In this document: piece after piece, positions 3,001-6,000 of the stretch
Layout: every line of letters begins with the position of its first letter
How positions within the stretch are numbered: position 1 is the stretch's first letter
NCBI GenBank assembly: GCA_963705255.1
Contig: OY970061.1
Span: 2,160,778 to 2,192,777, forward strand
Length of the DNA: 32,000 nucleotides
Direction of reading: 5' to 3'
From: an uncultured Methanoregulaceae archaeon
GTDB lineage: Archaea > Halobacteriota > Methanomicrobia > Methanomicrobiales > Methanospirillaceae
Position numbers: made by a program

Positions 3001-6000
3001 CTCAGGTACTTCCTATGAATTCCGGAAATCTTACAATGTCCTCGGTCGGAATAATTATTTTCATAACATTACTGATTGATTGCCTAAATCTAATGTATAA
3101 ACGTCTGATTTTTGTCCCTTCAGAAACTTCTATCAATACCGAATCTGTGTTAAATGCGTCTTCAAAGATTATTGAACCAATCTATGAGGTTGCGGCACAA
3201 GAAATTATTAAGCCTAAAGAAATAATCAAAAATGACGTAAATTCAGCGAATTTAGACGCTCACAAAAATGATTTTTTTAGCAAATTCTATAAATCCTATA
3301 TTTTACCGTATGCAAAACCAATTATGAGATTTGTAAAGTATTTCGTTGCAATAATAATTTTTGTGTATTTTGCGATGGAATACGAATCTAAATTACTTCC
3401 GAATAGCTCAATTGATCTCGTCGTGGCAGTAATTGGCGGAGTAATTTCAGGATTTATTATCATCTTCTTTCAAAAGGGAATGGGAGAATGATATTATCAG
3501 AGGATCAAATTTCATTATTTATCGAATTTATTTTTTATTTTTCGCGTCCTGAGTACCTATATTTTACAACGCAGAATCATAAAACGGGTCAGAAAGATCA
3601 GAATCTATTAAGTAATATTTTCGTTGCCAGTCATGAAATAAATCGGATATTATTTTCAAAAATTGTTCACTAAAGGGAATAAAATCTTCTCGTAACTCTG
3701 AATATTCTTTAACAATTTCCCCCATCTGCGATTTTATTACAAATGATCTCAGGGCATCTCTGTTCTCGTTAAAAAAATGGTACATGTGTGGTAATTCGTT
3801 AAGTTTTCCATTAAGTTTTGCATCTGCTATCGCTAATGTAAATACGCACTCATAATCGTCAACATTCGGAAATTTTGATTCCGATTGATTAAGGGAATCA
3901 CATAAATTTTTGAAATCATTCCAAATCACTTCTTTTTCATTAAAAATTTTCATATTGATTTCACGAAGTCTTTTCGAATAATTATCATATTCGATACTAA
4001 GATTTTTGATTTCCTCAACATTTCTCTGCAAAATTGGATCAAAATCATGAATTTGTCTCTTTAAAAAGTAATTTGGGGAATCCGGAAAAATAATTCTATT
4101 TTCCGGTTTAACCTTTTGATCGCATAAGAATCTTAAAATGTTATATCCCCGTTGAAAAAAATCTTTATCGTCATTTAATTTTCGGATTATAGGTAAAAAA
4201 ATGTTCTTTGCCATATCCTTAATTACTCTGCTCTCACGGTCGAATTGATTTATTTCGACAAGCTTCCGGTTCGCGTCTGCTATAACATATGTTGCGGATA
4301 TCGATATTCCGGTTATAATAAGAAGCATTGTTGTTGCGCCAGCTTGTATCCACACTGGAAGTGTAGAGCGATCTGATTGAATAAACCCCCATAACATAAT
4401 TAAGCCAACACACCCTGTTGCTAGAATAAACGCATAGTGAATACGAAGAGTACCTTCGATTGTCAAATAAAAAATAGCTGATACGGCTATGAAGAGACCG
4501 ATAAAGATGATCAAATCCACAGATTCAATTATCATTTGTCCACATCAGATATCCAAGACTTACCTTTTATAAATTTTCTATCCCATTTTTCCGGCCTTTA
4601 CTAATATCCGGTTCTGTTTATTTCCGGGCTTTTAATTCCAATTATATGAAAATTGACGAAATGTAATTATTTACGATCCCCCTTACTAAAATTAATAAAT
4701 TAACTTTAAATAGAGGATTATCAAAAAAAAAGATCCATGTTATTTTTAAATGGCAAAAAAATAAAATTAGCTCTCTTTTTCATTCTCTAATTATAGGAAT
4801 CTTCCTTTCATTTTCAATTGCCATCTCTATCGCAAACCCGAACAATTTAATCGATATTAAAAAATTAGAGCCAGCGATTCAAACCTTAGATAATGCAAGT
4901 ATTACGATTGGAGCAATAATCCTCGCAATAATATTTGCAATAATTACAATAGTTAAGACAAATTTACAAAATGGCAAGGAAATCGATGATAAGAAAATAG
5001 GATTTTTTATGTTTTTAGCTGCATTGATGATTTTTGCCATTATTTTAGGGTTATGCCCCTGTACCAATCGTATTTTGCTAAATTGAGTGATGCAACTGGC
5101 ACCTGCGCATTGTCAATCGGTTTGGTTATTTTTGTATTATTTATTTTAGGCCCTCTGTTTTATTTTGGTGAGGGGGATTTTTTATTGAAATAGATCTTTT
5201 TGAAAAGAGCGCGCCGCCACTCAAGCAACTTTTCAGAACAGTATGATATCACATGTGATGGGTCACAATTTACAAGATAACTATAACCCAAAGTAAACGT
5301 GCGGGCATAGGGATTCGAACCCAGATAACGAGCAAGATCGATTGGTTATAATTGTGGTAAAAATGTGTGAAAATGGGGTTTTCTCATCTTTCAAAGGTTG
5401 CGATGCACGCCGCCGCAGTCGAAGTTATCACTTCTCCACAGCCTTCGGCTGTTCCCGAAGGGACGCCCCCGCAGCGACCTCAACGACTAAAGAAATAAAA
5501 CTGCCGTGACCCGCCGTGCTTCATCCGTACTGGATGAAGCAAGTCGAAGAACCTGACGGTTCTTCTCCAGTCAATCCTCGCAGTTGCGACGATTGACTCC
5601 CCGGAGAGGCCCTGAGGCGGGGAACTCTCCTGAGTACTCCCAAGCTCAAACAACCTGATGATTCGATCATGAATCCAGTTTCAGATCAAACAATGGCAAG
5701 CCCTTTTACAAAAAAATTCCGGATTCCGGCTCGCAAAAAAAATCGCGATCGCTCGTGCGCCAAAAAAATTTCAATCGACCCCTCACCCCCCGCTTGAAAT
5801 TTTTCAATCGACCCTTGATTGAATGTTCCGGACCATCACGCCGGAGAACGAAAAATATTGTAGCATGTACATGCATTTTGTAGCATAATTATCCAATTGT
5901 AGTCTTACAAACTAACACCTCATGATCGCGATGAAAAAAGACGAACGTGAAAGTCACGTTGACTTTCATGTGAGGCTGCTGAAAATACAATGCATTTTCA

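Follow-up and report, generated by a model that had tools for sequence, protein, structure and literature searches.

A hairpin-dense intergenic block of a Methanoregulaceae archaeon is probably a decayed miniature transposon carrying inserted palindromic modules

We analysed a 32,000-nucleotide (nt) stretch from the genome of an uncultured Methanoregulaceae archaeon, a methanogen of Methanoregula type (assembly GCA_963705255.1, contig OY970061.1, positions 2,160,778 to 2,192,777; hereafter the window). In it, a hairpin-dense block at 5405-5645, here called block A, had been singled out from the sequence alone as a possible relative of the bacterial repetitive extragenic palindromes (REPs) or a structured RNA. 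Block A is not a free-standing unit: it consists of the two-hairpin core of a MITE (miniature inverted-repeat transposable element) and of five secondarily inserted hairpins, a composition that the original prediction had missed. We consider it probable that the block is selfish repetitive DNA at two nested levels, a decayed MITE and small palindromic modules. The first level would be a non-autonomous transposon, widespread in Methanoregulaceae, with a core formed by the hairpins P1 and P2. At the second level, the 5′ internal loops of P1 and P2 would each have received a module block, X' and W in one case (36 nt) and V, X and Z in the other (80 nt). The palindromes form a new archaeal repeat family, nested in a MITE and similar to REPs, to bacterial interspersed mosaic elements (BIMEs) and to Rickettsia palindromic elements (RPEs), and of known kinds, in a lineage with none described. 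A literature search found no description of these repeats, nor of an equivalent small-palindrome family in archaea.

Comparison with a syntenic orthologue of window 3-13622 from another species (L197; retrieved loci are numbered with an L) revealed the same junction piece and a naked MITE core at the orthologous site. Identity between the two sequences is 78-83% for the element and 76-82% for the neighbouring, flanking genes. Relative to L197, the window carries exactly two clean extra blocks, of 36 nt after GCCGCCGC and of 80 nt after CCGCCGTG. The first (5417-5452, + strand) comprises a short X-type hairpin, AGTCGAAG-ttatca-CTTCTCC (5417-5437), and hairpin W, ACAGCC-ttc-GGCTGT (5438-5452); our covariance model for X, R1, matches it at 5409-5445 with 19.3 bits and an E-value of 5e-4. 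The same pair of short X and W stands at the same place in L154, L032 and L025. The second block (5519-5598, +), a clean gap in L197, comprises hairpin V, CTTCATCC-gtact-GGATGAAG, with a stem reaching 5517-5541, hairpin X, AGTCGAAGAACC-tgac-GGTTCTTCTCC (5542-5568; R1 match at 5534-5576, 41.4 bits, E-value 5e-11), and hairpin Z, AGTCAATCCTCGCA-gt-TGCGACGATTGACT (5569-5598). In L071, P1 is naked and P2 contains the same three-hairpin block of V, X and Z. With the window blocks being clean gaps in L197 and P1 naked in L071, these alignments indicate that the five hairpins most prominent in block A were added, in this lineage, to the 5′ internal loops of two hairpins that already existed.

The hairpins of block A follow one another at 5417-5437, 5438-5452, 5453-5463, 5517-5541, 5542-5568, 5569-5598 and 5599-5630. 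An inverted-repeat finder and our own scan returned perfect or near-perfect stems at 5438-5452, 5442-5461, 5517-5541 (10 bp) and 5546-5565 (8 bp), with further stems at 5569-5598 (14-nt arms, 93%) and 5598-5630. The earlier description of the block as almost entirely stem-loops therefore holds for these near-perfect, back-to-back hairpins but not for about 55 nt (5464-5516) that contain none, and the UUCG-type loops that it mentioned are found as TTCG and CGAA loops. The block is free of long open reading frames (ORFs), as stated, although ORFs of 43-57 amino acids (aa) overlap it. It does not lie between convergent genes, since the minus strand carries both of the nearest convincing genes (3564-4535 and 6106-6984). 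Across the whole window, 22 perfect hairpins with a stem of at least 7 bp were counted, against 9.4 in shuffled sequences, and they are concentrated at 5.4-5.6 kb (block A) and at 29.7-30.1 kb (block C, described below).

The scaffold into which the modules would have been inserted spans window 5320-5712 (+), a unit of 393 nt with a boundary ambiguity of 2 nt (AA) and without any ORF above 57 aa. It is missing from the metagenome contigs L001 and L002, the flanks of which are 99% identical. Based on this indel, on L197 and on alignment to intact MITEs, the unit is a decayed copy of a Methanoregulaceae MITE with a left arm, a GC-rich two-hairpin core and a right arm. The left-arm remnant CCCAGATAACGAGCAAGATCGATTGG (5320-5345, +) is like the inner left inverted end of relatives (GGCTCTGTAGAAACGAGCATGAATCAG in L133), its terminal GGCTCT being gone; by eye, the left arm AGATAACGAGCAAGATC resembles the inner left end AGAAACGAGCATGAATC of L133, a resemblance that MAFFT reproduces only partly. 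The motif GCGATGCAC (family consensus TTGCGATGAAC) and then the 5′ arm of P1, GCCGCCGC, occupy 5400-5416 (+) and correspond to near-invariant columns of a 61-sequence core alignment, A4. The remainder of P1, at 5453-5478 (+), consists of the apical hairpin TCCC-gaa-GGGA, a C-rich bulge, CGCCCCC, and the 3′ arm GCAGCGAC, which is degenerate relative to the family consensus GCGGCGGC, with 6 of 8 pairs remaining as read from the sequence. The segment 5479-5518 (+) includes a variable linker (5479-5509) and then the 5′ arm of P2 with a conserved GTG (CCCGCCGTG, 5510-5518), while the remnant CCCCGGAGAGG of the P2 apical hairpin, a conserved CCCTGA and the P2 3′ arm GGCGGGG are located at 5599-5622 (+). 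The right arm (5623-5712, +), recognised by alignment to intact copies, ends in a degenerate right inverted end, GCAAGCCCTTTTACAAAAA, opposite GCCCGTTTCTACAGAGCC of the family, and this end falls exactly at the indel boundary relative to L001 and L002.

In the family as a whole, the core is laid out as TTGCGATGAAC, P1 (GCCGCCGC, a small apical hairpin, a C-rich bulge and GCGGCGGC), a variable linker hairpin, and P2 (CCCCGCC-GTG, a small apical hairpin, CCCTGA and GGCGGGG). Window 5400-5640 aligns to this conserved unit in L016 (twice), L036, L032, L025, L071 and L076. A metagenome scan with the core pattern CCCGCGGCGG-N25-45-CCCCGCCGTG reached at least 120 loci, with about 60% of the matches listed being true core copies, and the retrieved loci contain 87 MITE core copies, often two within a few kb. 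Intact relatives, among them many metagenome copies, measure 429-683 nt and hold the core at fixed distances from inverted ends of the form (G/T)GCTCTGTAGAAAC...GTTTCTACAGAGC(C/A), that is, GGCTCT...AGAGCC; the inverted-end pair of the family was written GGCTCTGTAGAAAC...GTTTCTACAGAGCC. AT-rich target duplications of 8-9 bp border the copies in L176 (CAAATATC), L184 (AAAAAAAAG) and L203 (ATAATATT), and also in L227 and L138, and near-identical copies occur in unrelated flanks. Insertion sequences (ISs) of the ISL3 family make 8-bp target duplications. The ends of ISL3 elements read GGCTCT...AGAGCC (PMC5398504). By this likeness, the MITE ends appear to be of ISL3 type, an assignment made from the end sequence and the duplication length only.

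The window copy retains only the degenerate right end GCCCTTTTACAAAAA and the inner remnant of the left arm, and a candidate target duplication at its site, ATTCGAAA / ACAAAAAA, matches at 4 of 8 positions as read from the sequence. We take 5320-5712 to be an old copy: only 6 of the 8 P1 pairs remain, it has lost its terminal nucleotides, and it has diverged from L197 no less than the neighbouring genes have. The empty-site allele of L001 and L002 was probably brought in together with the Wadjet island that these contigs carry.

Other identities for the scaffold were tried. An element of IS200/IS605 type (PATE or omega RNA) was rejected, as core copies have no conserved target tetranucleotide on their left and have inverted ends and target duplications instead. 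A coding sequence on the opposite strand was also rejected, because 1-2-nt indels and the hairpin insertions break every frame. For a phage or plasmid origin, the core gave 0 matches in viral contigs and the minimal core had no blastn match in plasmids or phages. No constant protein partner of the core was found, except for a Csa3-like gene in four loci. Core copies often form divergent pairs 0.5-2 kb apart without a convincing ORF between them, as in L016, 1-256 (-) and 1444-1740 (+), and in L136, L142 and L176. A second MITE domain, S, of the form GGGGACAGTGCCTGTCCCC..CTTTGCGATGG..CCCCCAAGAGCGTT, lies about 100-350 nt upstream of the core in L147, L198, L131, L138, L222 and L219. It shares the grammar of the core (a GC hairpin, a C-run, TTGCGATG and the end CCCCCAAGAGCGTT), occurs in either orientation relative to it and has no Rfam match.

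Motif X (AGTCGAAG..CTTCTCC) has six copies in the window, one of them on the minus strand, and R1, built from 32 copies, matches them at 5409-5445, 5534-5576, 17196-17240, 29738-29792 and 30065-30107 (+) and at 29909-29954 (-), with E-values from 4e-13 to 8e-4. The copies at 5542, 17204, 29738 and 30073 on which the original prediction was built are real: a search allowing 3 mismatches expects 0.00 chance matches, and their R1 E-values are significant. The consensus proposed for them (AAYCC) needs revision, however, as it suits only the copy at 17204 and the stem length of X varies; the invariant part is AGTC-GAAG...CTTC-TCC. Nor are the copies always in the same orientation, given the minus-strand copy at 29909-29954 and the clusters elsewhere that mix both orientations. 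The observation that loops differ while stems are kept is borne out: the loops vary, and covariation is seen in the upper part of the stem (CGC/GCG, TCC/GGA, TTC/GAA). In X stems, 25 cells are altered on both sides compared with 10.6 in shuffles, and the upper-stem pairs alternate between C-G (19) and U-A (12) at one position and G-C (15), C-G (9) and U-A (4) at another. X is 27-31 nt long, with a stem of 8-10 bp and a loop of 3-6 nt, and 98.3% of cells are paired in the 32 copies. It stands on a foot of AGTC (5′) and TCC (3′), the invariance of which in these copies arises only because the search pattern fixed those bases.

Beyond the window, a scan with the X pattern AGTCGAAGAA-N6-12-TTCTTCTCC, limited to one genome per species, found at least 101 stretches, and about half of the matches listed belong to Methanoregula or Methanoregulaceae, often with several per genome; in viral contigs the pattern gave only 9 scattered matches. 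In 383 kb of Methanoregula loci, R1 has 130 matches at E<0.01, clustered in trains with both orientations per cluster, a density that is biased upward, like those of the other modules, because these loci were retrieved through the X pattern. Examples of mixed-orientation clusters are L094 6499-6907, L075 2700-3177 and window 29738-30107. A 29-mer variant of X, AGTCGAAGAACGCTGATGCGTTCTTCTCC, is identical across five species-level genomes. As a rule, further recurring palindromes come after X. Modules Z, Y and T number 9, 45 and 9 in the Methanoregula loci, and the terminal motif CCCCCAAGAGCGTC numbers 8, versus 0-1 in 369 kb of other loci, with 0 there for Z. Copies of X lie inside open frames of at least 150 aa in 33% of cases, compared with 83% of random positions. 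As far as these sequences can tell, the 15-35-nt palindromes of which X is one constitute a Methanoregula-wide family and stack in intergenic clusters in both orientations.

At least one copy is genic rather than extragenic. Copy B of X (17204-17232, +; R1 48 bits, E-value 4e-13) lies within the coding sequence of hgcB, a 142-aa ORF at 16899-17327 (-) whose identification as HgcB comes from an NCBIfam equivalog that scores 112 bits (cut-off 99) over residues 46-139. Copy B is read there as ..GEKNPAGFFDS, which is the translated reverse complement of X, and a degenerate second unit follows it at 17253-17297. The 45 N-terminal residues of the protein, outside the profile, contain two 19-aa repeats, SGKVPQNPGEMNKPSGFSD and SGKVSQNLDGEKNPAGFFD, corresponding to a 57-nt repeat unit. 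Among 592 HgcB homologues, length classes of 107-113, about 130, 142-152 and 168-169 aa correspond to 0, 1, 2 and 3 N-terminal units. The homologue P0026 has at least two units of the ..EKNPSGFFD.. (X) type; some homologues (among P0001-P0120) carry a different unit, ..RSEVRGGEGRHQP.FDSY, and most units are encoded by X-type hairpins. At the DNA level, the 169-aa form in L234 (527-1036) contains two reverse-complement X hairpins of 33 and 39.5 bits. The units must be translated, because the unit-bearing forms have no Met near the FDSY junction; in those examined the only Met before the Cys motif is upstream of the units, with the exception of an internal Met14 in the window protein and P0001, which is nevertheless upstream of an intact X unit. 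By analogy, the in-frame X units of HgcB show the behaviour of the RPEs of Rickettsia. Upstream of hgcB, hgcA is split into two overlapping ORFs (window 17327-18231, -), of which 17707-18231 covers HgcA profile positions 23-118 and 17327-18055 positions 119-322, neither reaching the 275-bit cut-off; the split could reflect a frameshift, a pseudogene or a sequencing error.

Block A could instead be a structured non-coding RNA gene, with a functional core (5′ hairpin, P1, linker hairpin and P2) and the extra hairpins as lineage-specific expansion segments, tolerated or selected at the RNA level. We consider this unlikely, although part of the evidence would suit it. Folding of the 241 nt as RNA yields -91.5 kcal/mol for the + strand and -115.6 kcal/mol for the - strand, with z-scores of -4.0 and -5.7, respectively, and 0 of 200 shuffles equalled or beat either value. 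The core is kept at a syntenic site between species and beside a Csa3-like gene in four loci, the extra hairpins are confined to internal loops, so that P1 and P2 stay intact, and the apical pair of P2 covaries, being U-A in 33 sequences of the core alignment and C-G in 19. By eye, many copies also have AT-rich upstream sequence and T-runs 15-40 nt downstream. However, Rfam 15 yields 0 matches at the gathering score in the window and 12 related loci, and nothing relevant within window 5200-5800 even at E<=10. The core is also multi-copy and enclosed in units with inverted ends and target duplications, P1 of the window is decayed, and the element diverges from L197 about as fast as the neighbouring genes. 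Specific RNA types were tried as well: ARAGORN detects neither tRNA nor tmRNA in the window, where the tRNA-like piece at 5276-5319 is a remnant only, and neither a K-turn, C/D-box, H/ACA nor bulge-helix-bulge intron, compared by hand with the consensus geometry, fits GCGATGA, CTGA, GTG and the GUC bulge of X.

The pairing itself also speaks to the distinction between RNA and DNA. A strand-specific RNA is expected to accept G·U pairs but not A·C pairs, whereas a DNA palindrome makes no distinction between them. The stems of 104 distinct X copies are 98.4% Watson-Crick, with 871 such pairs compared with 6 of G·T and 5 of A·C, and in the 61-sequence core alignment the exceptions are 14 of G·U type and 10 of A·C type, so that neither X nor the core shows a wobble asymmetry between strands. 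Together with the occurrence of X in both orientations within one cluster and inside a coding sequence, this points to palindromes maintained and propagated as DNA, not as RNA. The original prediction had read conserved stems with variable loops as the pattern of a structure under selection; with no G·U excess, both orientations in use and X translated in hgcB, selection on an RNA structure cannot be concluded from that pattern, and the structured RNA that the prediction offered as an alternative finds no support in Rfam or in strand-specific covariation.

Another explanation is that the hairpins are host-functional, REP-like signals selected through the binding of a host protein, with roles in mRNA 3′-end protection, transcription pausing or termination, or nucleoid organisation, as bacterial REPs have. 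The identity of the 29-nt X variant in five species, the conserved foot nucleotides, the preference of copies for positions outside long ORFs and the presence of X on both sides of genes in L043 and L087, which are ordinary host genes, are what such signals would produce. On the other hand, orthologous sites differ in the number and kind of copies, copies take either orientation relative to genes and invade coding sequence and a transposon interior, and no binding protein is known. We regard selection for such a host role as decidedly improbable as the explanation, and in any case it could coexist with a selfish origin and does not compete with one.

Under the two-level selfish origin, the modules would be propagated as DNA: an enzyme recognising the foot AGTC...TCC would probably act on them as single-strand hairpins, in analogy to REPs with their REP-associated tyrosine transposases (RAYTs) and to IS200/IS605 elements, and/or recombination between repeat clusters would disperse them. 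They would accumulate or survive where extra hairpins are tolerated, with incidental effects on neighbouring transcripts. Several observations weigh against this origin. No HUH or other transposase was found near X clusters in the genome fragments examined, where the genes enclosed by inverted X pairs in L043 and L087 are ordinary ones, and a tblastn search with an IS200 TnpA sequence gave weak spurious matches only, to LepA and haem-synthesis genes. Neither a target duplication nor a conserved target is visible at the two module insertions, and the window insertions could equally be deletions in L197. Both the inverted ends and the target duplication of the window copy are degenerate, and it is assigned to the MITE family by alignment and by the indel boundary; as for an autonomous parent IS, the retrieved loci contain no large ORF enclosed by inverted ends at a spacing of 0.9-3.5 kb. 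The retrieval bias in X and module densities has to be counted here too. Finally, the high conservation of the core and of the commonest X variant between species, the covariation of the P2 apical pair, the T-runs after the core and the entry of modules only at loops fit a selected RNA also.

Block A adjoins a variable genomic island. In L001 and L002, identity is 99% with window 5713-18953 and about 97% with 697-1771, and a complete Wadjet (JetABCD) system (L001 1076-7897) occupies the DNA between these two stretches. The same slot in the window (1772-5319) holds an island of about 3.5 kb with about 30% GC, compared with about 57% in the host, and its ORFs have no Pfam, NCBIfam or PADLOC family match. 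Within it, an AT-rich, membrane-protein-like stretch at 4753-5088 (+), in which an ATG ORF ends after 13 codons and a start-less frame continues, is probably a pseudogene. The right edge of the island is marked by a junction sequence (..TGCGGGCATAGGGATTCGAA; 5276-5319, -) that is like a tRNA 3′ half, although its T-stem would have two mismatches as read from the sequence; it is 90.9% identical over 44 nt to L001 and L002 and is also present in L197. This setting would suit block A as an attachment site or scar of the adjacent island, with the hairpins as recombinase-binding sites: the block adjoins a tRNA-3′-half-like remnant at the edge of a slot with differing content, and some other core copies (L036, L128) have a tRNA gene at a distance of up to about 100 nt. 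Yet L001 and L002 have an island in the slot without the block, most core copies have no nearby tRNA, no integrase is evident in the window's island, and the same modules occur at many unrelated sites, which leaves an attachment site very improbable. In L002, a tandem duplication of about 230 nt (7709-7934 and 7943 onward, equivalent to window 5713-5937) lies right at the empty MITE site. The Csa3-like gene beside the core (6106-6984, -) encodes a 292-aa CARF/HTH protein (PADLOC Csa3, E-value 3e-37; no Pfam match), and its homologues adjoin the core in L197, L163 and L210 as in the window.

The other hairpin concentration of the window, block C (29711-30132, no strand assigned), is a copy of a composite repeat of 200-450 nt made of the same kinds of modules, with 72-84% identity to L094, L075, L074 and L037, four loci of one genome. 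Its X copies are located at 29738-29784 (+), 29909-29954 (-) and 30073-30099 (+), the first of them seemingly two partial units fused together, and module T is present at both 29828 and 30111. The fused copy reads AGTCGAAGAACTC-tgac-GAGTTC and then GATCGAAGACC-tgc-GGTCTTCTCC, and appears to be one palindrome interrupted or extended by another. Block C and the Methanoregula trains ending in CCCCCAAGAGCGTCA look like hairpin-expanded versions of domain S.

The foot and stem of X (AGTCGAAGAA-N6-10-TTCTTCTCC) are also multi-copy in hairpin trains of Patescibacteria among the matches listed, where both are fixed by the search pattern, which implies some ascertainment. The bearers are Nealsonbacteria JAPLXL01 (L024, L039, L068, L069, L101), 'bacterium E14' JAUSLA01 (L003, L022, L028, L044, L046, L082), Saccharibacteria and Paceibacter, with several copies per genome; the remaining Patescibacteria loci are L072, L034, L041, L029 and L080. 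These trains share X only and not the accompanying modules; their companion hairpins include ACCCTTCGC..GCTCGGGT and GAAGATGAGGACGCAGTCCTCATC. It is unlikely that multi-copy hairpin families would match all 19 fixed bases by chance. Some members of these Patescibacteria lineages live attached to methanogens (PMC9763046; bioRxiv 10.1101/2022.04.20.488981). A speculative extension, to which we give a low probability, is that X is genuinely mobile, with a recognition enzyme of its own that can be transferred horizontally, and that the hairpin family may have crossed between a bacterial episymbiont and its archaeal host. In a further version, the MITE core may be a functional RNA or protein-binding platform decorated by palindromes. 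If X did move with an enzyme of its own, it would be the first archaeal REP/RAYT-like system, and one that also invades proteins in frame; the hairpin common to Patescibacteria is in any event a testable lead on gene flow between episymbionts and methanogens.

REPs, BIMEs and RPEs are classic bacterial features, and the block A locus offers a dated, orthology-anchored archaeal example, from a naked core to a core with hairpins. The palindromes nest in a transposon and are translated in HgcB, a ferredoxin needed for mercury methylation, with a unit number that varies by species, which provides material for working out how such elements move. Annotators are thereby cautioned against taking every intergenic block of Methanomicrobiales that is rich in hairpins and folds well for an RNA gene.

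Among known systems, the likeness to REPs and BIMEs that had been proposed holds in outline (a short palindrome, dispersed, clustered, in both orientations and mostly outside long ORFs), but the foot differs and at least one copy is genic. As in Enterobacteria and Pseudomonas, the palindromes are of about 20-40 nt with a conserved foot beside the stem and form mosaic arrays with other palindromes in both orientations and without visible target duplication; in the loci retrieved through the X pattern they also appear to have many, mostly extragenic copies. By contrast, the foot of X is AGTC...TCC, not GTAG or GTGG, and is analogous in position only; the host is an archaeon, and no RAYT-like HUH transposase was found near X in genome fragments; and modules also lie inside a transposon core and coding sequence, combining the unrelated types X, Y, Z, W and T. 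With RPEs the modules share palindromes that are tolerated in frame and add peptide, here ..EKNPSGFFD.. in HgcB with 0-3 units. RPEs differ in being 100-150 nt long, compared with 27-31 nt for X units (about 57 nt with the partner hairpin), and a single invaded gene is documented here; to our knowledge, the mobility of RPEs is likewise unexplained. Taken together with its relatives, the scaffold resembles ISL3-derived MITEs, being non-coding and below 700 nt, with GGCTCT/AGAGCC ends and AT-rich target duplications of 8-9 bp in the intact relatives, many near-identical copies in unrelated flanks, and presence or absence between strains. It differs in that its interior (the two-hairpin core and domain S) is more conserved than its ends, in that the parent IS was not found in the retrieved loci and in that neither the terminal nucleotides nor a clear duplication survive in the window copy. 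The G+C clusters of yeast mitochondria are mobile GC-rich palindromes in AT-rich spacers that form tandem arrays and occur in frame in var1 and at rRNA expansion positions; they are organellar, of unrelated sequence and without a MITE host, and have another flanking-site signature. The small dispersed repeats of cyanobacteria belong to another phylum and have unrelated sequences, but in Elhai's account of 2008 these tiny hairpin repeats reportedly insert into one another and into other repeats with their foldability preserved.

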